DNA of 41,962 bases from positions 1 through 41,962 of the IMG/VR virus record IMGVR_UViG_3300027986_000017. One strand, written 5' to 3'. The notes under the pieces are model-generated. The model had not been told where the DNA came from. It made no database searches and saw only the letters and a program-made list of their open reading frames with translations. A program made the translations under genes and the position numbers. Position 1 is the stretch's first letter; each line of letters starts with the position of its first letter. This DNA comes from a virus (Duplodnaviria; Caudoviricetes). Shown piece by piece: positions 8,244 to 41,962 of this stretch.

Positions 8244-8450
8244 ATGCTCCGGCGCATGTTTCTGCTCGCGCTGGGCGGATCCGCCGCGGCCGCCGACGTC
8301 GACCAGCTGGCAGACCTGATGAACGCCTTCGCGCGCGTCTACAACCAATTTGCCGAGCAGGAACGTCGCGGAATCTTCGACGTGAAGCTCGCCCGCGAGC
8401 TTTCGCGGCGCTGGCGTGACGTCGAACGCTCGGGAGACTGGCCGCGATGA
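8244..8450 (+). CDS. Small protein with twin-arginine-like leader
   Basis: MLRRMFLLALGGSAAAA; abuts both neighbours. Confidence 0.6.
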   Translation: MLRRMFLLALGGSAAAADVDQLADLMNAFARVYNQFAEQERRGIFDVKLARELSRRWRDVERSGDWPR

Positions 8451-16152: not shown

Positions 16153-16578
16153 CTATAGGCGGGGATTGCGAAACAGCAGGCCTTCCAGCGCCCGCTTCCT
16201 GAATTGCCAAAATTCGCGTTCCTGTCCGTCGATGAGCAAGCGGCACTCGCCGTCGTCGTTCAGGGTCAGCGTGGCCTGGAAGAGCACCTTGTCGTCGGCG
16301 TCAGCCACGACGATGGCGTTGTCGGCCAGCGCGAATTTGACGATCTTGCCTGAGATCCGATTGCCCGCCGCAGCGACGGCGAAACTAGAGCCGTTGCCGA
16401 TGTAGGTGTAGGAATAGTCCGCTTGGCCTTGGAGCTGTTCCTTCCGCGCCTTGACATCTTCCTGGATCTGCATCCGGAGAGTTTCAAAAACGGTCGAAAG
16501 TTGGCAGGATGATAGCGCCGCGACCCAATCGATGTTCTTCACCGTTTTAGTGTACTCGCCGCTGCCAGCGCGGGTCAC
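16153..16578 (-). CDS. Hypothetical protein of the leftward (probably lysogenic) operon
   Basis: GTGA overlap with upstream gene; stop codon abuts 16152 tail-to-tail. Confidence 0.7.
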   Translation of the reverse strand: MTRAGSGEYTKTVKNIDWVAALSSCQLSTVFETLRMQIQEDVKARKEQLQGQADYSYTYIGNGSSFAVAAAGNRISGKIVKFALADNAIVVADADDKVLFQATLTLNDDGECRLLIDGQEREFWQFRKRALEGLLFRNPRL

Positions 16579-16949
16579 TGGGGCGGGTTGTATATCGCTC
16601 GGATTTTACGCAGAAACTCCGCTACCTCGGCCTCGGACTTGCCGATCAGTCGCATGTTGAAGGCGGCCAGGGCGACTGCGATGGGAAGCTGCCCGTTTTC
16701 GGGCGCTTCATACACCTTGTCGATTCCCGTGGTCAATTCGCCCATTGTGGCGCGCGGCTTGGAGCTTGTCGTCGTTGCGTTTTCTGACCAGCCCCAGTGC
16801 TCCATGTAGCCGATCACAAAATGAAGCCTCTCGTTGTGATCGAGAGCCCGCCAAAAACGACCGTTTAGATACCCCTCCGTCTGCTGGCTTGCTGGAATCT
16901 GCGCTGTGCAGCATCCGGCAGCAAACACCGCGAGTATCACAGTCTTCAT
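16575..16949 (-). CDS. Exported small helical protein; candidate superinfection exclusion
   Basis: MKTVILAVFAAGCCTA-Q leader (possible weak lipobox); position next to ejection genes. Confidence 0.65.
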   Translation of the reverse strand: MKTVILAVFAAGCCTAQIPASQQTEGYLNGRFWRALDHNERLHFVIGYMEHWGWSENATTTSSKPRATMGELTTGIDKVYEAPENGQLPIAVALAAFNMRLIGKSEAEVAEFLRKIRAIYNPPQ

Positions 16950-18476: not shown

Positions 18477-18803
18477 ATGACTCCCGAAGTCCGCGCGATC
18501 GCCCAGGCGCTCGCCGACGCGATCGCGGACCACAAGGCTTCCACGCATAGCGTGGGCGGATGCGTGGAAAGGCGTGGAAACGCCGGTTTGCATCTGGCCG
18601 AAACCGTGGTAGACTCCTCTGGTGCGAGTGCGGAGCCGAGGCAGTTCGGCTCCGTACTTTGTACAAAATCCCCCCTTGAGAGGCGCCCTCTCAACCGCGC
18701 CGAGCTTGAATTCTCTCGAGAGATCACGCGCCGCCTGCGAGACTTCAACGCGTCGCGCTACTACGCGCGCCTCCGCATCGCCGAGCGCAGAGCCAAGCCG
18801 TGA
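18477..18803 (+). CDS. Hypothetical protein
   Basis: Coupled operon; a 32-aa ORF 18382-18480 (VKKVRKVPAR...) bridges the gap. Confidence 0.5.
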   Translation: MTPEVRAIAQALADAIADHKASTHSVGGCVERRGNAGLHLAETVVDSSGASAEPRQFGSVLCTKSPLERRPLNRAELEFSREITRRLRDFNASRYYARLRIAERRAKP

Positions 18804-19465
18804 AACCGGCGACTAAAAGAGCAGTGACACCTTCGAAGCCGATCACGGCCGCCATCTACGCGCGCGTTTCAACCGAGGACCAGAACAACGAGATGCAGCT
18901 CTCAGAGCTCCGCGCCTACGCGAAGCGCATGGGTTGGAGCTCGATCGAGTACACCGAGCAGGCCTCGAGCGTGAAGAAGCGCGCGCAGTTCGATCGACTG
19001 ATGGCCGACGCCAGGCTGAGGAAGGTCGACGTCGTCCTGGTGTGGAAGCTCGACCGCTTCGCGCGATCGATGCAGCAGCTCACCGCGAACATCCAGGCGC
19101 TCGACACCTTCGGCGTGCGTTTCATCGCGATCACGCAGAACATCGACACCGACCAGCGCAATCCGATGTCGCGCCTTGTGCTGCACATCATGGGCGCTTT
19201 CGCCGAATTCGAGCGCGCGCTGATCGTCGAGCGCGTGACCGCCGGCGTCAACCAGTACAGGAAGGATTTCGACGCCGGCAAGGTCGGGGAAGGGAAGCCG
19301 CGGCAGTCGCGATCGGGAAAGAACCTGCCGCCTCACCGGCCGCGCCGCGTGTTCGACCGCGATCGCGCCCGCAAGCTACGAGCCAAGGGCCTCACGTTCC
19401 GCGCGATCGCGAAGCAGCTGGGCGTCCCGCTCAACACCGTCGTGCGCGCGATTAAGCGAGGATAG
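18800..19465 (+). CDS. Small serine recombinase (resolvase/invertase family) with C-terminal HTH; start may be GTG 18824
   Basis: AAIYARVST catalytic motif, VWKLDRFARS, AFAEFERALIVER; HTH LTFRAIAKQLGVPLNTV. Confidence 0.93.
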   Translation: MKPATKRAVTPSKPITAAIYARVSTEDQNNEMQLSELRAYAKRMGWSSIEYTEQASSVKKRAQFDRLMADARLRKVDVVLVWKLDRFARSMQQLTANIQALDTFGVRFIAITQNIDTDQRNPMSRLVLHIMGAFAEFERALIVERVTAGVNQYRKDFDAGKVGEGKPRQSRSGKNLPPHRPRRVFDRDRARKLRAKGLTFRAIAKQLGVPLNTVVRAIKRG

Positions 19466-19764
19466 AGCGATGCCGGCCTCGTTCATTCGATACGAGCCCC
19501 GCAAAGGCGACATCGTGCTCGCTCAGCAGCGGCCGGGCTTCAACGTGTGGGGCGTCTACTGCGCGTATTGTGGCCTGCCGCGCAGCATCTCACAGACGGT
19601 CGGCTGGGGTTATCCGGTGCTCGATCGCGAGGGTTCCGCGCTGTTTCAGCGCCATCGGTGCGCTGGGTGCGGCTCTCCGATTTTTCGCCGCGTCGGTCAG
19701 TAGCGGCCGTTGTGAGTGATCGCGGGGTTGCAACCGTCGTGCGCGCGATTAAGCGAGGATAGAG
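19436..19764 (+). repeat. Perfect 32-bp direct repeat (19436-19467 and 19733-19764) duplicating the recombinase 3' end
   Basis: ACCGTCGTGCGCGCGATTAAGCGAGGATAGAG twice, each followed by (AGG)CGATGC. Confidence 0.95.
19470..19703 (+). CDS. 77-aa zinc-ribbon protein
   Basis: CAYCG...CAGCG; GAGG RBS supplied by the repeat. Confidence 0.65.
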   Translation: MPASFIRYEPRKGDIVLAQQRPGFNVWGVYCAYCGLPRSISQTVGWGYPVLDREGSALFQRHRCAGCGSPIFRRVGQ

Positions 19765-19769
19765 AGGCG

Positions 19770-19880
19770 ATGCGCGATGTGGTGAGGCTGTGGTGGCACT
19801 TCCTGAAGTTCCAAGCGAGGATGCTCTACCTGGACGTTTGGGGACTGCTCGCTGGGTATCCGAATCGGTTCTGGCCCTGA
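19770..19880 (+). CDS. 36-aa Trp-rich peptide (MRDVVRLWWHFLKFQARMLYLDVWGLLAGYPNRFWP)
   Basis: Manual translation; ATG follows the second repeat copy with GAGG RBS. Confidence 0.45.
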   Translation: MRDVVRLWWHFLKFQARMLYLDVWGLLAGYPNRFWP

Positions 19881-31165: not shown

Positions 31166-31615
31166 ATGCCGCGCAAGCAGGCGCACGCGAACGCCGACGC
31201 GTTCCTCGCCGCGTATCGGCTCACAGGCTCAATCACCGAGGCGGCCGCGGCCGCGCAGATTGATCGACGTCTGCATTACCGGTGGCTCAAGATCTCGGCG
31301 GCCTACAAGACGCGATTCGACCAGGCCAAGAGAGAGGCCGGCGAGATGTTGAAGGACATCGCGGTCAGGCGCTGCCGCGAGGGCACGCTAAAGCCGGTGT
31401 ACTACCAGGGCGTGCAGGTCGGCTGGGAAACGGTCTACGACAGCGGCCTGATGCAGTTTTTGCTTCGCGGCATGCTGCCCGAGGAATTTGGCCGCAAAGT
31501 CGAATTGACCGGAAAGGATGGCGGCCCGGTCGAACTGTCGATCGCCGAAACCATCCGCCGGCGCAGAGCCGAGCGCATCGGCGCCAAGGAGAATGAAAGT
31601 GCGAAAACTGACTGA
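31166..31615 (+). CDS. terS: Terminase small subunit
   Basis: HTH (GSITEAAAAAQIDRRLHYRW), YDSGLMQFLLRG, KVELTGKDGGPV; upstream of TerL. Confidence 0.8.
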   Translation: MPRKQAHANADAFLAAYRLTGSITEAAAAAQIDRRLHYRWLKISAAYKTRFDQAKREAGEMLKDIAVRRCREGTLKPVYYQGVQVGWETVYDSGLMQFLLRGMLPEEFGRKVELTGKDGGPVELSIAETIRRRRAERIGAKENESAKTD

Positions 31616-32009
31616 CCACATCGTCGAAGGCGACTCGGCGAACCATCAGATCGCTATCGAAGTCTTGGATGAGCCCGGCGCCGGCGGTGCCTGCCATCTT
31701 TACGATCTCCGCGGGTTCGACACTGCGAGCAATCTATCGGACCCGTTCAAGCGGCGCTATGGCACATCCGCCGATCACAGCACGGTACTCTTTCAAAACG
31801 GTCCGATCCGCGAAGTGGGCGTCAATGGCGTCACGCACGAAGCGCTTCTCGCGATCCTGATCGATCGGATGCGATCGTTCCTGGCAGGCCCGTATTCGTG
31901 CCGCGACAACGCGATCGCGCTGACCCACCTCGAAGAGGCCCTGATGTGGCTGCAACGCAGGACGCGTGAGCGCATCAAGCGCGGCGTCGAAGGCACACAC
32001 CAAAAGTAA
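31599..32009 (+). CDS. tad1: Tad1-family anti-defence sponge protein (anti-Thoeris/CBASS)
   Basis: GAGGACHLY...FQNG...GV...LLAILIDRMRSFLAGPYSCRDNAIALTHLEEALMWLQRRT.ER..RGVEGT matches the Tad1 pattern as I recall it; GTG 7 nt after AAGGAG. Confidence 0.85.
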   Translation: MRKLTDHIVEGDSANHQIAIEVLDEPGAGGACHLYDLRGFDTASNLSDPFKRRYGTSADHSTVLFQNGPIREVGVNGVTHEALLAILIDRMRSFLAGPYSCRDNAIALTHLEEALMWLQRRTRERIKRGVEGTHQK

Positions 32010-32013
32010 GGCA

Positions 32014-33483
32014 ATGCCCTCGCCCGTGGCCGACGAGATGGCCGAGTACTACGAGGATCCGCTCGGTTTCGTGCGCGACTGCTTCCCGTGGGGATCCGGC
32101 CCACTCGACGGCGAGACCGGGCCCGACGCCCACCAGACGGAGTTTCTGGAATCGCTCGCCGAGGAAGTCCGAAAGCGCAAATTCAACGGCCGCGATCCGG
32201 TGATGCCGATCCTGATGACCGAGGCCTCCGGCCACGGCACGGGCAAGAGCGCGATGGGCGCCTGGCTCGCCTGGTGGATACTCTCGACCAGGCCCGGCTC
32301 GATCGGCACGGTGACCGCCGGCACCTACACGCAGCTCGAGTCGCGCACCTGGGCCGCGATCCAGTGGTGGGGACGGCTCTGCTGCACGGCGCACTGGTTC
32401 GACATCCAGCAGCACGGCATCTACTCGAAAGAGGATCCCGAAAACTGGAAGCTCGTCGCGCAGTCGTGCAAGGAAGAGAACGCGCAATCGTTTGCCGGCC
32501 AGCACGCCCGCACCTCCACCAGCTGGTACCTGTTCGACGAGGCGTCGGAAGTCCCGAACAAGATTTACGAGACGGCCTATGGCGGCTTGACCGACGGCGA
32601 GCCGATGATGTTCGCCTGGGGCCAGTGCGTCCGCAACACAGGCGAATTCTACGAGATCAACTTCGGCGCGAAAGCCGCGCGCTGGAACCATCGCCGCGTC
32701 GACTCCCGCAACTCGCGTTTCACCAACAAAGAGCTGATCGCGCAGTGGGAAAACGACTACGGCGTCGACTCGGACTATTACCGCGTGCGCGTGCTCGGGT
32801 ATCCTCCGAGCGCGAGCGAGCTCCAGTACATCGACCGCGAGCGCGTCGACGCCGCGCGCAAGCGAAAGATCACCGACTCGCTGATCGACCCGCTGATCGC
32901 GGGCTTTGACGTCTCAGGCGGCGGCCGCAGCTGGAACGTGATCCGGTTCCGGCGAGGCCTCAACATGGCGACGCGGCCGGCGATCCGGATCCCCGGCGAA
33001 AAGGATCCCGACAGGAGCCAGCGCGTCGCGATCTGCGCCGAGCTGCTGCGCGACCACCGGCCAGGCCATCGGATCACCGCGATGTTCGTCGATACGGCGT
33101 TCGGCGCCCCGATCGTCGCGACGCTGCGCTCGATGGGCTTCACCAACGTCTACGAAGTGGCGTTCGGTGGGAAGTCCTACGACGCGCACTTCGCCAACCT
33201 CCGCGCCCACATGTACTCGCAGCTGAAGGACGCCCTGCTGCTGGGAGCGATCCCCGACGAAGAGGAGCTCGCGCAGCAGCTGTGCCTGCCCGGCTACCAC
33301 ATCCGGCCAGGCGGCTCGAAGCTGGTCATCGAGTCGAAGCAGGACATCCAGGAGCGCGGCGAGAAGTCGCCGGACGATGCCGATGCCCTGGCTTTGACGT
33401 TTGCGCGGCCCGTGCCGCCTCAGATCGACTACGGCGACGACGACGACCGCGGATCCGGCTCGGAATACGGGTTCATGCGCTGA
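32014..33483 (+). CDS. terL: Terminase large subunit
   Basis: Walker A SGHGTGKS, Walker B YLFDEAS, nuclease motifs GFDVS and SPDDADALAL. Confidence 0.95.
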   Translation: MPSPVADEMAEYYEDPLGFVRDCFPWGSGPLDGETGPDAHQTEFLESLAEEVRKRKFNGRDPVMPILMTEASGHGTGKSAMGAWLAWWILSTRPGSIGTVTAGTYTQLESRTWAAIQWWGRLCCTAHWFDIQQHGIYSKEDPENWKLVAQSCKEENAQSFAGQHARTSTSWYLFDEASEVPNKIYETAYGGLTDGEPMMFAWGQCVRNTGEFYEINFGAKAARWNHRRVDSRNSRFTNKELIAQWENDYGVDSDYYRVRVLGYPPSASELQYIDRERVDAARKRKITDSLIDPLIAGFDVSGGGRSWNVIRFRRGLNMATRPAIRIPGEKDPDRSQRVAICAELLRDHRPGHRITAMFVDTAFGAPIVATLRSMGFTNVYEVAFGGKSYDAHFANLRAHMYSQLKDALLLGAIPDEEELAQQLCLPGYHIRPGGSKLVIESKQDIQERGEKSPDDADALALTFARPVPPQIDYGDDDDRGSGSEYGFMR

Positions 33484-33484
33484 C

Positions 33485-33493
33485 TGGCGACTC
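33485..33493 (+). promoter_or_regulatory. TGGCGACTC variant motif (portal module)
   Basis: Ends 7 nt before ATG 33501. Confidence 0.5.
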
Positions 33494-33500
33494 CAAGGGT

Positions 33501-33782
33501 ATGAGCGGACTCGCTAATTTCCTGTTCGGCCGAGGGGCACTGAAAAAGGCCGCCGGATCCACCCCGGAGCCGGCGCCGGCACAGCCCGCCGGCATCGACA
33601 TCGCGGCCGAGGCTCAGAAGATGGCGGATCGCGCCAAGGGCAACGATGGCGGAATCGGCGCCCGCAGTACGGCCCAGCCGACGCACCCGAACGACGTAGC
33701 GCTCAAGGCGCGGACTTCGAAGCTGCCGGCGCAGGCCACGCAGCCGAACGACGTCGGGATGAAGGGAAAGGACGACGACTGA
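33501..33782 (+). CDS. Low-complexity protein with two PNDV repeats
   Basis: MSGLANFLFGRG...HPNDVALKAR...QPNDVGMKGK. Confidence 0.6.
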   Translation: MSGLANFLFGRGALKKAAGSTPEPAPAQPAGIDIAAEAQKMADRAKGNDGGIGARSTAQPTHPNDVALKARTSKLPAQATQPNDVGMKGKDDD

Positions 33783-34066
33783 TGCCACTCACCCCAGGTA
33801 GCTCCCCCGGCGTCATCTCCTCGAACATCAGCGAGATGGTCAACGCCGGCCATCCGAAACGCGTCGCCGTCGCCGCGGCGCTCCATACCGCCGACGTCCA
33901 CCCGAACGATGTCGGCCTCACCGCGCGCGTCAAAGGCGCTCCGCTGCAGCCGATGCAGCCGAACGACGTCGGCCTCAAGAAAATGGCAGGTCCGAATCTG
34001 CGAGGGATGACTCGCACCGAGCTGCACTCGCAGCGGCAGATGCGCGGGAGGATGCCGCGGGCGTGA
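33782..34066 (+). CDS. Small phage protein (MPLTPGSS..VISSNISEMV.AG...AVAAAL) with two PNDVG repeats
   Basis: Recognisable N-terminal small phage domain; TGATG coupling. Confidence 0.7.
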   Translation: MPLTPGSSPGVISSNISEMVNAGHPKRVAVAAALHTADVHPNDVGLTARVKGAPLQPMQPNDVGLKKMAGPNLRGMTRTELHSQRQMRGRMPRA

Positions 34067-34647: not shown

Positions 34648-36720
34648 ATGCCCTACGACGTCGACAAGCTCGTCGCAACCGCTCGGGCGCGCCTGGCATC
34701 TGCGCGCGCGGCCGAACAGGAGATCCGCGACGAAGCGGCGATCGACAAACGCTTCCTGATCGGCAAGCAGTGGGACGAGAAGGTCAGAAACGAGCGCATC
34801 GCCGGCGGCAAAGCCGCGCTGACCATCAACCGGCTCGGCGCCTTCCGCAACCAGGTCGTAAACGACATCCGCCAGAACAACCCGCAGGCGCGCGTCTCAC
34901 CGCGGCGCGACGGGACCAAGGAAACCGCGGAAGTCTATGAAGGCCTGATCCGCGCGATCCAGTACGACTCCGACTCGCAGATCGCTTTCACCGAGGCCGC
35001 GAAATACGCGATCGGATCGAGCTACGGCGTGTTCCAGCTCGTCGCCGAGCTGGTCGACGAGGAAACCGGCGAGCACGATCTCAAAATCGAACCGGTCTAC
35101 GATCCGGACACCGTGTTTTTCGATAACCACGCGATGAAGCCCGACCGGAGCGATTCGCGCTGGGCGATGAAGCTCGTCCCGATGAGCCGGATCGAATTCA
35201 TGGAGCGGTGGCCCAACGCGGAGGCGACCGGCCAGAACTTCGCAAGCGGCGAAACCGAGTGGATGGATCCGCGCGGCGATGGCGCTCACGTTCTCGTCGC
35301 GGAGTACTTCTGCATCGAAGAGGCCGGCAGCTCGAACGTCGCGCTCGGCGCCGATCTCGAAGGCGAGGACGCCAAACCGGCGCGCAAGCGCAAGGAAAAG
35401 GGCAAAGAGCTCGTCAAGCACATCATCAATGGCGTCGAGGAGCTCGAGCCGCCCACGCTGCTGCCTGGCACGCGCGTGCCGCTGTTCCCGGTCTACGGCG
35501 ATGAAATGTGGGTCGACGGCAAGCGCAACATCGGCTCGCTGATCCGCGACTCGCGCGACCTGAACGTTCTCTACAACTGGGAATCGACCAACGAAGCCGA
35601 AACGCTGGCGATGAACAGCAAAAACCCGTATCTCGCGACGCCGGCGATGATCCAGGGCCACGAAAAAGAGTGGAAGCAGATGAACACGACGAACCGCAAC
35701 TACGTCCTATTCAATCCGGATCCGCTCATTCAGGGCGGCAAGCCCTTCCGCGACTGGGCCGAGCCGCCGATCGCGGCCATCTCCCAGGCTAAGGCGCAGA
35801 CCGCCAACGAAATGCGCGACGTGATCGGCCTGCACGATCCGTCGCTCGGAAAGCAGCAGTACGCGGGCCAAAGCGGCCGCGCGATCGCGCAGCTTCGAAG
35901 TGAAGGCGACCTCGCCACCTACCACTACACCGACAACCTGTCGCGGGCGATTCGCTCCATGTGTCACTGCCTGCTCGAGTGGATCCCGTGGTACTACGAC
36001 ACCGAGCGCGAAATCGTGATCCTCGGCGAGGATCTGGCCGAGAAGATCGTGCGCGTGAACACCGAGCAGCCGCACACAGACGAAGAGACCGGCAAGACCT
36101 ATCACCACCAGCTGGGCGTCGGGAAGTATTCCGTGGTGGTCAAGATCGGGCCGAGCTACGACACCGAGCGCGAAGAAGAAGACGCCTTCTGGGAAGCGAC
36201 GGTCAAGGCGGCGCCCGAGCTGATGATGGTTTTCGGCGATCAGTATTTCGCGCACAAGGACGTCGCCGGCGCCGACATCGCGGCCGACCGGATGAAGCGG
36301 TTCATCGCGATGAAGACGCCAGGCCTGATCGAGGACGACAAGGGTGCGAGCGTTCCGCCCCAGGTCCAGGCGCAGATGGCCCAGATGCAGCAGCAGCTGC
36401 AGCAGCTGCAGCAGCAACTTCAGCAGGCGATGCTGGTCATCAAAACGAAGCAGATCGAGTCGCAGGGCCGCGTCCAGGTCGAGCAGATCAAGCAGCACGG
36501 CACGCTGATGAAGGCCGCGCTCGAAACGCAGACTGCGGCGCATTCCGACGTCCTGGCGCATAAGCGCGACATGGTCAAGATGCTCCTCTCCGAGCTGATG
36601 GACGCGGCCGAGCACATGGGCCAGATGGATCACGAACACGCCCTCATCGACCACCAGGCGGCCGTGGCGCCGCCGCCGATGGCGCCGGCAGCCGGCGACC
36701 AGGGAGCACCTCAGCAATGA
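34648..36720 (+). CDS. Portal protein, P22 gp1-like
   Basis: GKQW...LTINRL, SGRAI, DTEREIVILGED, GKYSVVV..GPSY.T.REE; Gln-rich barrel coiled coil. Confidence 0.92.
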   Translation: MPYDVDKLVATARARLASARAAEQEIRDEAAIDKRFLIGKQWDEKVRNERIAGGKAALTINRLGAFRNQVVNDIRQNNPQARVSPRRDGTKETAEVYEGLIRAIQYDSDSQIAFTEAAKYAIGSSYGVFQLVAELVDEETGEHDLKIEPVYDPDTVFFDNHAMKPDRSDSRWAMKLVPMSRIEFMERWPNAEATGQNFASGETEWMDPRGDGAHVLVAEYFCIEEAGSSNVALGADLEGEDAKPARKRKEKGKELVKHIINGVEELEPPTLLPGTRVPLFPVYGDEMWVDGKRNIGSLIRDSRDLNVLYNWESTNEAETLAMNSKNPYLATPAMIQGHEKEWKQMNTTNRNYVLFNPDPLIQGGKPFRDWAEPPIAAISQAKAQTANEMRDVIGLHDPSLGKQQYAGQSGRAIAQLRSEGDLATYHYTDNLSRAIRSMCHCLLEWIPWYYDTEREIVILGEDLAEKIVRVNTEQPHTDEETGKTYHHQLGVGKYSVVVKIGPSYDTEREEEDAFWEATVKAAPELMMVFGDQYFAHKDVAGADIAADRMKRFIAMKTPGLIEDDKGASVPPQVQAQMAQMQQQLQQLQQQLQQAMLVIKTKQIESQGRVQVEQIKQHGTLMKAALETQTAAHSDVLAHKRDMVKMLLSELMDAAEHMGQMDHEHALIDHQAAVAPPPMAPAAGDQGAPQQ

Positions 36721-36968
36721 AACGCCTGATTCCTCTCGCCCTACTCGCGCTGGTCGCTTTCGCGCCGGCTCGCGACAAGAAAGACGTCGAGCGCATCGCC
36801 CAGCTCGAGCACCAGGTCGCCGAGCTCAAGCAGGGCCAGGACGCGATCGACGCCGGCGCGCGCGATGCGTTCGAGCGGGTCCAGACGATCATCCTCCACC
36901 TGATCGAGGCCGCCCAGGACGCCGACGAGCGGATTTCACGGCTCGAGCACATGAACAAGGCCGAGTAG
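36717..36968 (+). CDS. Signal/anchor plus coiled-coil protein
   Basis: MKRLIPLALLALVAFA; heptad pattern. Confidence 0.6.
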   Translation: MKRLIPLALLALVAFAPARDKKDVERIAQLEHQVAELKQGQDAIDAGARDAFERVQTIILHLIEAAQDADERISRLEHMNKAE

Positions 36969-36979
36969 TCGGGCATAAT

Positions 36980-37348
36980 ATGCGTGTGAACCGGCGCGGC
37001 TTTCTCGGGATCCTCGGCGGCGCGATCGCCGGCGCCGCGATCGCGACTCCAGCCGTCCGAACACTCCACCAGTTCGGGGTGCAGTTCGAGATCGAGACCT
37101 TTGCGGAATTTCAGCGGCTCTACATCCAGCCGGCCGTGGAGAAGCTCGCGGCGCAGATCGATCGCGCGCTTCTGGATGGCTACGCGACTTACTTCCGCCT
37201 CGGACCATCGGACGAGTTTGAATCCGAGGTGATGGATCGCAACCTTCACGCAGCCCTGGCTCCGTTCCCCGAAGCTCGCTATCGGCAGGAATGGGATCCA
37301 ACACGCCGCACGCATGTCGGCATGATCGACATCGGAATCGCAGCCTAA
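36980..37348 (+). CDS. Tat-signal protein resembling a truncated coat-protein paralog
   Basis: NRRGFLG Tat motif; QFGVQF...YIQPAVEKLAAQID parallels coat QSGVHF...YIKPAAERLANKLD. Confidence 0.65.
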   Translation: MRVNRRGFLGILGGAIAGAAIATPAVRTLHQFGVQFEIETFAEFQRLYIQPAVEKLAAQIDRALLDGYATYFRLGPSDEFESEVMDRNLHAALAPFPEARYRQEWDPTRRTHVGMIDIGIAA

Positions 37349-37360
37349 ACAGCATCATCC

Positions 37361-37376
37361 CGCGAGTGGCGACTAT
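37361..37376 (+). promoter_or_regulatory. CGCGAGTGGCGACTAT motif (head module)
   Basis: Intergenic; identical to the 27389 site. Confidence 0.7.
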
Positions 37377-37383
37377 CTGAGTG

Positions 37384-37509
37384 CCAGCACGCCGGGAAGC
37401 GGCTTTCTAGAAAGGGCCGTCCGGATTGCCTGGTGCCGGGAGGCGATTTTGCCTCTACTTCGAAACGGCATCCGGTGATCCCGACGGCCTTTTCGTTTCC
37501 CGGGCCTGG
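37384..37509 (+). ncRNA. Long (~125 nt) hairpin leader of the scaffold gene
   Basis: Nested stems CCGGGAAGCG/CGTTTCCCGG, GAAAGGGCCGTC/GACGGCCTTTTC, GGATTGCC/GGTGATCC, GGTGCCG/CGGCATC, GAGGC/GCCTC. Confidence 0.55.
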
Positions 37510-37539
37510 TGATTTTCTTGGAGGCCCTTTCGGGAAACC

Positions 37540-38553
37540 ATGCCTGAACCCGCTGTCGCTGAACCGCAAGCACCAAAGACTGAGACGTATGCCGATTTCA
37601 AAACCGGATTCGACAAACCCGCGTCGGCCGCTGCCGATGTCCAGCCCAATGCTCACGGAGTAAACGATCCGCAGGGCTCTGACCCTTCCGCGCCCGCCGG
37701 CGATCCGGCTGCGGCACAACCTGGCGACGGTTCGGACCCGTCTTTGAAGCAGGACAAAGTTGAGAAGCGCAAGCAGCAGATCCAGCGGGATATCGATCAA
37801 CAGGTCGCCCGCAGGGAAGCCGCCAAGCGCGAAGCGGATGCGGAAGAGGAGCGTCTGCGAAAACTCAAAGGCGGAAGCCCGTCGCCCAAAGAATCTGCGC
37901 CGGAAGGCGCTGCCCCGAAACCCTTCGACGGAACCGACCCGAGCGATCCCGAGCCCACACAAGACCAATTCACGGACTACCAGCAGTGGCTGGATGCCCG
38001 CGCCGGCTGGATCGGACGCAAAGAGTTTCGCAAGCTCGAACACAGAAAAACGCAGAAGGCCGCCGAGGAAGCTCAGGCGCGCTCTCGCGAGGAAGCACAG
38101 CGCGGCTATAAGGCCGCCGTGACCGACTTCGAGACGCGCAGCAGCGAGTACGCGGCCGAGCACGATGATTATCCCGACCTGGTCGCCAAGTTCAAGGAGA
38201 CGAAAATCTCTCCCGAAACCCAGGCGTTCCTGCTGTGGGGATGCCAAGGTGAGGAAGGCCCGGCGATGCTCCACCGGCTTATGAAAGAGCCGGACAAGCT
38301 GAAGGAGATCGACGGCCAGAAAACGCCGATTCTGCGGTTCGACGCGCTCTACAAGTTTAAGTACGAATCCCGCATCGCTGAGCTCGAAGCAGAGCTCGCG
38401 CAAGCTCGACAGACGCCTGCTGCACCGAAAAAAAGTTCAGCCCCGCCAGCGGGGACGAATTTACGCGGTGGAGGCAACCCTCCGGTGATCGATGAATCTG
38501 CCGGCTATACAGCCTGGAAGAAGAAATCCTTCGACCCGAAGCACGCAGCGTAA
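37540..38553 (+). CDS. Capsid scaffolding protein
   Basis: Acidic, Pro-rich coiled coil between portal and coat; P..DQF.DY..W motif; C-terminal SAPP.G..L.G. Confidence 0.8.
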   Translation: MPEPAVAEPQAPKTETYADFKTGFDKPASAAADVQPNAHGVNDPQGSDPSAPAGDPAAAQPGDGSDPSLKQDKVEKRKQQIQRDIDQQVARREAAKREADAEEERLRKLKGGSPSPKESAPEGAAPKPFDGTDPSDPEPTQDQFTDYQQWLDARAGWIGRKEFRKLEHRKTQKAAEEAQARSREEAQRGYKAAVTDFETRSSEYAAEHDDYPDLVAKFKETKISPETQAFLLWGCQGEEGPAMLHRLMKEPDKLKEIDGQKTPILRFDALYKFKYESRIAELEAELAQARQTPAAPKKSSAPPAGTNLRGGGNPPVIDESAGYTAWKKKSFDPKHAA

Positions 38554-38595: not shown

Positions 38596-39846
38596 ATGCC
38601 CAACAATTTACTCTCAACGCAAAAGATCCTCTACCGGGGTCTGGCGCGGCTTTCCAACATGCTCGAGATCTGGCCGAACCTGTACGACGGGTACAGCAAG
38701 GAATTCGGGCAGCCTGGCGCGAAAGTCGGCCGCACGGTCGAAGTGAAAAAACCGCAGCGTTTCGTCGGCGTCGACGGCGCGCTGTTTCAACCGGAACCCC
38801 TCGACAATCTGGTCACGCCCGTGAGCGTCACGCAGCAGTCGGGCGTCCACTTCCAGGCCGACACGATGGAAGACTACATGTCCATCGAGGACTGGGACGA
38901 GAACTATATCAAGCCCGCGGCCGAGCGCCTCGCCAACAAGCTCGATTTCGCGGCAGCGCAGTACATGGCGCAGCGGACCTGGAACCTGGTCGGCACCTAC
39001 GGCACCACGCCCACGGGAACGACCGCCTTCAAGCAGTACCTGCTCGCGGCGAAGAAGCTGAAGCAGAATCTGGCGCCGAAGGAAGGCCGCTGCATGGTCA
39101 TCAACTCCGACGCGTCGACTGAAGTCGTCGACGCCTTGAAGGGGCAGTTCAATCCGCAGGCGACCATCTCGAAGATGTTCCAGCGGAACCGCATCGGCAA
39201 AGACACCGGCGGCATGGACTGGTACGAGACGGAAAACCTGGCCTCGCTCACTGCGGGCGCCCAGGCCGGAACTCCTGTGATCAACGGAGCCAATCAGACC
39301 GGCACCGGCGGAAACAACGGCACGATGCAGCTGATCCTCAACGGCTTCACCGCGGCCACCACCGTGAAGCAGGGCGACGTCTTCACCATCGGATCTGGCG
39401 CGACCCTCGTCACGATGACGAACGCCGGCAACTACCAGTCGACTCCGGTAGCCCAGCAGTTCGTGGTCGAAGCCGACGGCACCGCCGACGGAGCGGGCAA
39501 TCTGACGCTGACCATCTCGCCGGCGATCACGCCGAGCGGCCAGTATCAGAACGTCAACCAGGTCGGTGCGAACGGCGCCTCGATTAACTTCCAGTCGCTT
39601 GCCTCGACCGCCTCGACGCAGTACCTGTGCTTCCACGAGACCGCCTACACCGTCGTTTCGGTGCCTGGAAAGGTCCCCGGCGGAACCGACATGGCGTACC
39701 AGGAGCGGGATCCCGAGACCGGGATTTATCTGCGCTTCATTCGTGACTTCGACACCGACACCGACATCTGGAAGTGTCGCTTCGACGTCTACTGGGGAAT
39801 TTCACCGCTGTATCGCGAGCACGCGTGCCGCGTGGCGGGAGCTTAA
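38596..39846 (+). CDS. Major capsid protein, P22 coat (gp5) family
   Basis: KVGRTVEVKKPQRF, YIKPAAERLANKLD, GDVFTI, FHETAY, RFDVYWG. Confidence 0.93.
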   Translation: MPNNLLSTQKILYRGLARLSNMLEIWPNLYDGYSKEFGQPGAKVGRTVEVKKPQRFVGVDGALFQPEPLDNLVTPVSVTQQSGVHFQADTMEDYMSIEDWDENYIKPAAERLANKLDFAAAQYMAQRTWNLVGTYGTTPTGTTAFKQYLLAAKKLKQNLAPKEGRCMVINSDASTEVVDALKGQFNPQATISKMFQRNRIGKDTGGMDWYETENLASLTAGAQAGTPVINGANQTGTGGNNGTMQLILNGFTAATTVKQGDVFTIGSGATLVTMTNAGNYQSTPVAQQFVVEADGTADGAGNLTLTISPAITPSGQYQNVNQVGANGASINFQSLASTASTQYLCFHETAYTVVSVPGKVPGGTDMAYQERDPETGIYLRFIRDFDTDTDIWKCRFDVYWGISPLYREHACRVAGA

Positions 39847-40943: not shown

Positions 40944-40984
40944 GGCGGCCCTCAGCTCACCAAGCTGGGGACCGCCCACTTTTC
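40944..40984 (+). terminator. Hairpin plus T-run before adaptor copy 2
   Basis: GGCGGCCCTCAGCT-CACCA-AGCTGGGGACCGCC-CACTTTT. Confidence 0.55.
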
Positions 40985-40986
40985 GC

Positions 40987-41772
40987 ATGGACAAGACGGT
41001 CCAACAGTACGCGCGCGACACGATGCGGATCTGCGGGCAGATGCAGAGGCCCGGCCGCGGAGTCTCGCCCGAGCAGCTCGAAGAGGTGACGTTCTTTTTG
41101 AACCAGCTGCTCGACTCCTGGAACACCATGCGAAACAAGATTTTCCAGGTGGCAGCCGCCATCTACACGCTGAGCCCGAACCTGCAGTACTACCTCATCG
41201 GCCCGAGCGCAGCGCCGACGGTGATCGGCGGCATTTCCTACGGCGCATTCAACGCCGCGCGGCCGCTGAAGATCAGCTTCGCGCAGCTGATCTACCAGAC
41301 GGCGCCGCAAGAGCTCAACCTCGACCTCGAGATCATCGACACCAACCAGCAGGCGAACATCCGCGTCCCTGGCATTTTCTCGATCCCGCTCGAGCTCTAC
41401 TACGACAACGGCTACTCGCAGGCCGTCCCGACGGGCGTCGCGTCGATCTTCCTGTACCCAGGCCCGCAGCTCGGCTACCAGCTGAGGCTCTACACCTGGC
41501 AGGCTCTCAATTCCGCGCTGAACTCGTCCGACACGCTTTTCGTGCCGCCTGGCTACGCTCGCGCGCTGACCTACAACCTGGCTCTCGAGCTGCCGGCGGA
41601 TTACCGCAAAGAGCTCACCGATCGCGAATTCGAAAAGATCGAGCGCACGGCTCAGGAAAGCCGCAACTCGATCGAGAGTCTAAACGCGCCCTGCGAGGAA
41701 GCCGTCGTCGACGTGCCCACCTCTCAGCGCACCGGCCGCAGCCGGTTCAACTGGCTGTCGCCACTCGGATAA
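40987..41772 (+). CDS. Head-tail adaptor, gp4-like (copy 2)
   Basis: Eight aa differences from 52..837. Confidence 0.75.
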   Translation: MDKTVQQYARDTMRICGQMQRPGRGVSPEQLEEVTFFLNQLLDSWNTMRNKIFQVAAAIYTLSPNLQYYLIGPSAAPTVIGGISYGAFNAARPLKISFAQLIYQTAPQELNLDLEIIDTNQQANIRVPGIFSIPLELYYDNGYSQAVPTGVASIFLYPGPQLGYQLRLYTWQALNSALNSSDTLFVPPGYARALTYNLALELPADYRKELTDREFEKIERTAQESRNSIESLNAPCEEAVVDVPTSQRTGRSRFNWLSPLG

Positions 41773-41784
41773 GGAGATTTGTTT

Positions 41785-41958
41785 ATGGCCGACCTCGAAC
41801 CCAAGGAAGTACACGAAGCACGGATCAACGAGAAAAAGGCGCGCAACATCGAGCGCGCGAAAGCTCACTCCGGGCACCAGATCCACAACCAGCCGGGCAT
41901 GCCGCACGAAAAGCTCCAGCATCGCCTGACGAACGTCGACCACAAGGAAGAGGAGTAA
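41785..41958 (+). CDS. 57-aa hypothetical protein (copy 2)
   Basis: Same protein as 860..1033. Confidence 0.8.
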   Translation: MADLEPKEVHEARINEKKARNIERAKAHSGHQIHNQPGMPHEKLQHRLTNVDHKEEE

Positions 41959-41962
41959 CTCC

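Follow-up and report, generated by a model that had tools for sequence, protein, structure and literature searches.

A small gene in the head module of a P22-like phage joins a Tat-type leader to a predicted minimal P-domain of the coat protein

Introduction

Why would a phage that encodes a complete P22-type coat protein also carry, ahead of it in the head module, a small gene whose product begins like a Tat substrate and continues like a fragment of that coat? A sequence-only reading of this locus had described the gene as a Tat-signal miniature paralog of the major capsid protein, made of the spine helix and the terminal P-domain strands of the HK97 fold with the rest deleted. It had offered three possible roles, namely a decoy for capsid-sensing immunity, a membrane tether for procapsids, or a periplasmic mimic that chaperones exported decoration proteins. 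Here, we examine the homology, predicted fold, relatives and origin of the gene and weigh what it may do.

Genomic context of the gene

The window, that is, the whole stretch of 41,962 nt that was analysed, is an entire phage record, and its two ends share an overlap of about 1 kb at 94.6% identity. This overlap (40-1037 and 40972-41962) holds two strain versions of an adaptor gene; with an identity of only 94.6%, the record may combine closely related strains. The head module, with terminase, portal, scaffold and coat, is P22-like, and the gap between portal and scaffold holds two small genes, an 83-aa ORF and the mini-coat gene (Table 1). In the relative L003, whose coat is 85% identical, the portal stop lies 112 bp ahead of the scaffold and both small genes are missing. 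No gene of the leader family was found in 21 kb of the L003 contig (L009), and the mini-coat gene was not found in 15 coat-centred loci scanned. Because it is missing at the same site in so close a relative, the mini-coat gene appears to be optional.

Table 1. Features of the portal-to-coat region, in window coordinates.
Feature	Position	Strand	Basis or remark
P22-like portal	34648..36720	+	PF16510 E 3e-135
83-aa protein, hydrophobic signal-peptide-like N-terminus, coiled-coil-like body	36717..36968	+	start overlaps portal stop
Sigma-70-type promoter-like site (TGAACA, 16 nt, CATAAT)	36952..36979	+	2 sites in region, shuffle mean 0.2
Mini-coat gene: Tat-type leader and predicted minimal P22-type coat P-domain	36980..37348	+	profiles, model, codon score
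Twin-arginine leader, aa 3-22	36986..37045	+	N-R-R-G-F-L, 20-residue uncharged run, AxA at 20-22
Beta-strand, aa 29-37	37064..37090	+	homologous to coat ~79-87
Long helix, aa 41-65	37100..37174	+	homologous to coat spine helix (~97-121)
Diverged linker, aa 72-88	37193..37243	+	pLDDT under 50
Beta-hairpin, aa 96-121	37265..37342	+	homologous to coat C-terminal P-domain strands (~376-401)
Long stem-loop, then U-rich run, terminator-like, between mini-coat gene and scaffold	37410..37494	+	folding z -6.0
Head scaffolding protein	37540..38553	+	phrog_8865 E 2e-19
P22-type major coat protein	38596..39846	+	PF11651 E 8e-32; Sf6 gp5 E 7e-9
Coat segments represented in the miniature	~38809-38970 and ~39643-39801	+	subfamily profile matches

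Several other features of the window were recorded. An Acb2/Tad1-like protein is encoded between TerS and TerL (31518-32009, plus strand; PF24729 E 1.5e-7, over the cut-off), likely a sponge for nucleotide signals in the head region. The ORFs 33282-33782 and 33782-34066, between TerL and portal, share a peptide motif of the type QPxxPNDVGL, whose repeats at 33677-33757 and 33890-33972 are 75% identical in DNA and occur in L003 too. A 68-aa ORF with a twin-arginine-like start (8244-8450, plus strand) lies between a head-closure gene and the next virion gene and matched neither the family leader HMM nor any PHROG. By eye, many ORFs, probable virion proteins included, have hydrophobic signal-peptide-like starts (near 1500, 2017, 3666, 16575-16949, 29455, 29859, 30368 and 39909). 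A 77-aa ORF is flanked by a direct repeat of about 40 bp (93%; 19436-19473 and 19733-19773) that copies the end of a serine recombinase gene (18800-19465). A PHROGs comparison of 46 proteins turned up no repressor; it did show a single serine recombinase of 221 aa, with a DNA invertase as its best match.

Reading frame and transcription signals

The ORF, its leader and both segments that had been set against the coat lie where the sequence-only reading placed them; what changes is the start. From the ATG at 36980 the product has 122 aa, and from the GTG at 36986 it has 120 aa. The GTG, which yields M-N-R-R, the usual start in the family, is likely the real one. The codon score is positive in the frame of the gene only (0.135, against -0.05 to -0.73 in the other five frames), and two overlapping minus-strand ORFs (36644-37315 and 36936-37358) were ruled out by this score. 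Contigs from three other runs, belonging to two other studies, cover 37025-37501, 37217-37416 and 37187-37337 with zero differences, and no variants were found in the parts of 36980..37348 that they cover. A close homologue for dN/dS was sought by single-sequence searches, which returned the protein itself only or three distant proteins.

The -10 box of the promoter-like site ends 6 nt upstream of the GTG at 36986. Across the family, a -10-like hexamer ending exactly 6 nt before the start was present in 12 of 111 genes, whereas other positions average 1.3 (corrected Poisson probability about 7e-7, with the other positions in the same genes as background). Because the -10 box sits at this distance from the GTG, the arrangement suggests that the mini-coat gene has its own leaderless transcript. 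Downstream, the region 37349-37542, which contains the 85-nt stem-loop, has a folding z of -6.0, reached by 0 of 200 shuffles. In L003, a short UUCG hairpin was seen by eye at the matching place. From these signals in the DNA we infer that the mini-coat gene is probably an independently transcribed, leaderless, moron-like gene.

Homology to the coat protein

The first of the two aligned segments, strand plus spine helix, proved significant in direct comparison. Residues 21-63 match residues 72-119 of the phage's own coat by BLASTP (E 6e-6, 35% identity) and by Smith-Waterman (score 65, shuffle maximum 58, 0 of 5000 shuffles), and they match at 13.1 bits (again 0 of 5000) a coat HMM built without this phage's coat and its near twin. 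The second segment failed pairwise: 3685 of 5000 shuffles scored as well against the own coat, and 2034 of 5000 against a 16-coat HMM. Its homology is accepted because the profiles of relatives support the match transitively, in the same register as originally proposed. A profile of 11 two-part relatives, with this protein excluded, aligns over its full length (32 bits; best shuffle 11), the C-terminal part being reached by 26 of 5000 shuffles for aa 65-122 and by 21 of 5000 for aa 86-122. A mild circularity attaches to this result, since the query that retrieved the 11 members was made of four proteins, this one among them. An HMM of the C-terminal part of the relatives' profile alone gave 85 of 5000.

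The same profile matches all 16 coats tested in two colinear segments, ~78-137 and ~350-400, skipping coat ~138-349. Consistent with this, HHalign of the subfamily against the coats, the comparison that had been suggested for this locus, aligned both segments, the first at probability 81 and aa 72-122 on coat 353-402 at probability 90.5 (E 1.3e-6). Searches of Pfam, PHROGs and PDB sequences returned no coat match for the protein or its subfamily (with PF11651, neither this protein nor any of 14 relatives reached E<=1), and the coat segment HMMs match only strand and spine in this protein. Within the hairpin, R100, D106 and D117 are invariant in 15 of 15 aligned members. A coat-like linker motif, L-x-L-P-x-G, is kept in relatives and lost in this diverged copy, as is the Arg before the last Asp. 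By these profile comparisons, the strand, spine helix and C-terminal hairpin of the miniature are homologous to P22-type coat, and the N-arm, E-loop, A-domain and I-domain have been lost.

Predicted fold

AlphaFold2, run on a 15-row alignment, gave for this protein a strand (29-37), a helix (41-65) and a hairpin (96-121) at pLDDT 66, and for the relative P0129 the same order of elements at pLDDT 85. When the P0129 model was compared with 48,161 chains by VIA-align, the CUS-3 coat ranked first (Z 9.9, 2.4 A over 95 residues, chain 76-402), followed by Douge (8.7), P22 (8.5) and Sf6 (8.5); the top seven rows were HK97-fold shells, and three of the first four P22-type. The model of this protein gave a weaker result of the same kind, its top four rows being HK97-fold capsids at Z 6.5-5.5, below the tool's caution level of 8 (P22 coat Z 6.2, rmsd 6.1, 105 aligned; CUS-3 coat Z 6.0). 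Foldseek returned no match at E<=0.001 for this protein's model in PDB or BFVD, and none at that threshold for the P0129 model, whose top four rows were nevertheless capsids. In the ESM Atlas, this protein, with a poor model, fell on unnamed clusters only (0.90-0.92 by features), and P0129, with no feature match, reached the P22 coat cluster at TM 0.60.

The protein is thus predicted to fold as a stand-alone minimal P-domain. Because the models rank HK97-fold capsids first, and in agreement with the profiles and HHalign, the anatomy originally proposed appears right, that is, a P-domain core without N-arm, E-loop, A-domain or I-domain. Compared with the P22, Sf6 and CUS-3 coats (PF11651; PDB 5uu5, 7sp4/5l35, 8skg), the miniature shares the P-domain strand, spine helix and C-terminal hairpin in the same order, in about 100 aa instead of about 420, and adds a Tat-type leader. 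Because it lacks the four other parts, it would not be expected to build capsomers.

The leader and a wider family of leader-plus-fragment genes

The leader carries the Tat motif Z-R-R-x-phi-phi, as NRRGFL, at the boundary of its short n-region and its h-region, the latter with 20 uncharged residues (mean hydropathy 1.73), and then an AxA cleavage site. In these elements it resembles curated Tat signal peptides (TIGR01409, PF10518); unlike them, it stays below the cut-offs (TIGR01409 15.5 bits, just under 16.7; PF10518 E 0.13) and is joined, in a phage gene, to a virion fragment. Among 15 subfamily members, TIGR01409 matches nine at E<=1, and five leaders lack a strict AxA. Most relatives have in addition a conserved DPERLLW-type linker, which is absent in this copy. 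In four of five MAGs that hold leader-family loci, tatC was found.

A search of 1.84 billion representatives yielded three distant proteins, and a profile of these with the present one reached 174 proteins (120 among the matches listed). A second profile, scored against 7997 candidates, gave 861 matches, most of them owed to the leader (120 among the matches listed); the 11 members of the subfamily profile described above come from this second search. The family set comprises 170 distinct proteins among the matches listed. Fourteen two-part members chosen by eye, together with two from the loci L027 and L047 and the present protein, form a subfamily of 17. Four of the 14 (P0123, P0124, P0129 and P0134) score at least 8 bits with each of the two coat segment HMMs, P0014 reaches 5.2 and 10.9 bits, and the 14 aligned mini-coats are 23-34% identical to this protein. 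No convincing mini-coat match was found among GenBank cultured phages, and a host search gave weak coat matches only (5 of 401 genomes of one phylum). In a spring-water phage (MW202674.1:16569-18078, hit H5) the match to P22-type coat is split in two, with another ORF annotated between the parts.

In the wider family, the Tat motif is present in 170 of 170 proteins and an uncharged run of exactly 15 residues in 147 (among the matches listed), with RR in 122 of 125 distinct locus ORFs, counts that are inflated because the family was gathered by its leader. The cargo matches a coat segment in 45 of 120 proteins among the matches listed, against 2 of 2400 shuffles, the spine class being enriched by the query; in loci found by leader patterns, it is a coat piece in 30 of 124. 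The cargos span N-arm, E-loop, spine, I-domain and C-terminus, often with two or three genes per phage. The remaining 75 of the 120 among the matches listed match no coat segment, and some cargos are very short; certain cargos resemble, by eye, pieces of head-tail adaptors. Tandem arrays of Tat-leader genes were seen at L149:1469-2527, L068:7995-9284 and L048:2122-2924, with a coat piece that differs from gene to gene (N-arm, I-domain, C-terminal strands or mini-coat), and the L068 array comes after a terminase of another family. Among loci of at least 8 kb, 24 of 59 carry a head or neck gene related to one of the window. All 12 loci on genome contigs belong to MAGs, including Bryobacteraceae, Pyrinomonadaceae and other Acidobacteria, and ordinary cellular Tat proteins account for some of the MAG rows.

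Paralog of the own coat or an older gene

Whether the gene is a paralog of this phage's own coat depends on how the comparison is made. In free local alignment the own coat ranks first of 21 (63, against 51), as the sequence-only reading would have it. When three fixed segments are summed, the coat of L057 scores 93 and the own coat 74. In fixed register among 22 coats, the own coat is joint third for the strand, first by one point for the helix and joint eleventh for the hairpin. In a tree of 39 rows and 112 columns, built after removal of four coats that were near-duplicates or broken and of four duplicate loci, the 17 mini-coats all fall on one side of the 22 coats (92/87, not starred, with long branches, 1.58 for this copy); grouping with the own coat was not rejected by the AU test (p-AU 0.20).

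Recent copying of the coat gene at the DNA level was considered and is rejected, because there is no nucleotide match (blastn at word size 7 finds a word of 11-12 nt at most) and synonymous sites are randomised. Overall, 39 of 104 identical residues use the same codon as the own coat, against 50 expected if randomised; for this gene alone the figure is 7 of 15, against 8.4. For this copy, paralogy in the strict sense is not established by these comparisons, and an older, mobile gene of the P22-coat family appears no less probable than duplication within this lineage. Across the family, 13 pairs of cargo and coat from a single contig were compared; in 6 of them the own coat outranks the rest of the 22 coats, and with this phage excluded the count is 5 of 12 (binomial 1e-5, or 9e-4 if chance is set at 1 in 10). 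Together with the randomised synonymous sites, this points to selection that keeps the protein similar to coat, in many cases to the coat of the same phage.

Possible functions

Among the three roles first proposed, the decoy has circumstantial support; evidence was also sought for the tether and the periplasmic chaperone, and nothing specific to either was found. We tentatively propose that the protein is a membrane-targeted decoy for capsid-sensing host immunity, with sensors of the P-domain as its presumed targets. Its own leaderless promoter would drive its expression in advance of the true coat, TatC would recognise the leader, and the mini P-domain would bind a capsid-sensing immune protein without triggering it. 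The bound sensor would then be held at the Tat translocase or carried through it, by sequestration or co-export. Export of a bound partner by Tat is known as hitchhiking.

We favour this decoy role because the miniature keeps the P-domain surface, beta-sheet plus spine helix, that CapRel-SJ46 is modelled to contact and where escape mutations fall (PMC9712102), and which is thus a documented trigger. It is also favoured because the cargo is kept at the protein level while codons are randomised, because cargos of the wider family are repeatedly coat pieces and often best match the coat encoded beside them on their contig, which a self-mimic would require, because the leader is constrained in motif and run length, because the gene has its own promoter-like site, and because a Tad1/Acb2-like gene shares the head region. 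The proposed mini-coat would resemble Tad1/Acb2 and Ocr in being a small optional gene that soaks up an immunity component; those proteins bind signalling nucleotides or mimic DNA.

What speaks against a decoy is that the targets of other sensors are absent from the miniature: Avs7, Avs8 and Avs10 bind mainly the A-domain (10.64898/2026.01.04.697583), and Sau-Thoeris senses the capsid hexamer (10.1101/2024.07.29.605636). CapRel, too, is modelled to touch A-domain loops in addition (PMC9712102). A mimic that binds a sensor could also activate it instead of blocking it. In this copy, moreover, the self-match is weak compared with the L057 coat, the sequence is diverged and modelled less confidently than P0129, and the Tat HMM falls just under its cut-off.

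A rather unlikely alternative is that the miniature poisons or regulates assembly, its P-domain capturing an E-loop and donating none, so that it caps shells or takes coat monomers to the membrane and would restrict related co-infecting or superinfecting phage. In P22, a pocket in the P-domain of one subunit takes up the tip of its neighbour's E-loop (10.1101/626804), and the cargos of the family are all interface pieces. SaPIbov5 offers a precedent in Ccm, a capsid homologue that redirects helper assembly (PMC8569155). Like the mini-coat, Ccm is a second HK97-fold gene derived from a capsid; unlike it, Ccm is built into the satellite's procapsid, to go by the title of PDB 7rwz. The better fit of this copy to a foreign coat lineage (L057), and the promoter-like site, would also suit such an inhibitor; against it, cargos that track the own coat would harm their carrier, and PHROGs found no repressor, so a temperate lifestyle is unsupported. 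To our knowledge, Ccm neither carries an export leader nor is trimmed to a P-domain.

We also consider it unlikely that the leader is the working part, occupying or jamming TatC or stressing the membrane, with the cargo as passenger, or that this copy is decaying. The leader is far more conserved than the cargos, most of the 120 cargos among the matches listed resemble no coat segment and some are very short, and this copy combines a long branch with a degraded linker. Yet the two-part fold is kept across 17 sequences with R, D and D invariant, residues persist although synonymous sites are randomised, and the frame is intact and identical in contigs of other studies.

A truly exported periplasmic or surface protein, with a capsid-like fold that acts outside the cytoplasm, for example as a chaperone for exported virion proteins, is quite improbable. 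We know of no periplasmic stage of the coat in P22-like phages, a strict AxA is missing in a third of the subfamily leaders, and the gene is missing at the same site in a relative with a similar downstream gene. These points stand against an AxA and a foldable domain that suit a class I Tat substrate (PMC13673990), and against the hydrophobic N-termini seen by eye on several other genes of this phage. A membrane tether that nucleates or holds the phage's own procapsids would fit the head-module position, the hydrophobic leader and a P-domain surface available to coat, but it is very improbable given an imperfect match to the own coat and the absence of the gene from L003 and the 15 coat-centred loci. 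That the protein is not coat-derived and is instead a small cellular beta-alpha-beta-beta fold of the YbjQ or dodecin type resembling a P-domain (for the P0129 model, 3qkb, DUF74, Z 7.2, and a YbjQ cluster at TM 0.58) is scarcely credible, as the profile matches coats in two colinear segments, HHalign also disfavours it, the structural ranking is led by HK97-fold shells, mostly P22-type at the very top, and no such Pfam match occurs in 15 members.

Significance

As in the first reading of the locus, which knew of no equivalent, we found no described counterpart of the leader plus capsid-fragment architecture. Its decoy form is absent from the accessible part of a 2026 anti-defence review (PMC13728456), Tat-leader capsid fragments are absent from that of a 2026 Tat review (PMC13673990), and a literature search whose coverage excluded most subscription papers and supplements found no publication on them. 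The present analysis adds a two-part subfamily with a predicted P-domain fold, the ranking of the own coat, the codon test and the signal of a leaderless promoter. The miniature is a natural deletion suggesting that a P-domain core of about 100 residues of the HK97 fold can persist independently. It is one member of a widespread family in which an export leader is joined to a virion fragment, and we found no paper on that family.

In a wider and more doubtful extension of the decoy proposal, P22-like phages of soil and freshwater would carry a modular counter-defence toolkit in which a Tat leader is joined to epitopes of the own capsid, in this phage a minimal HK97 P-domain that folds by itself, capturing sensors and removing them through the host Tat system. 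If the proteins are decoys, they would represent a new form of immune evasion, by relocation of the sensor; their cargos would map the capsid surfaces that soil bacteria detect and would be ready baits for fishing out unknown sensors. If they are assembly poisons, they would be compact phage-against-phage inhibitors.
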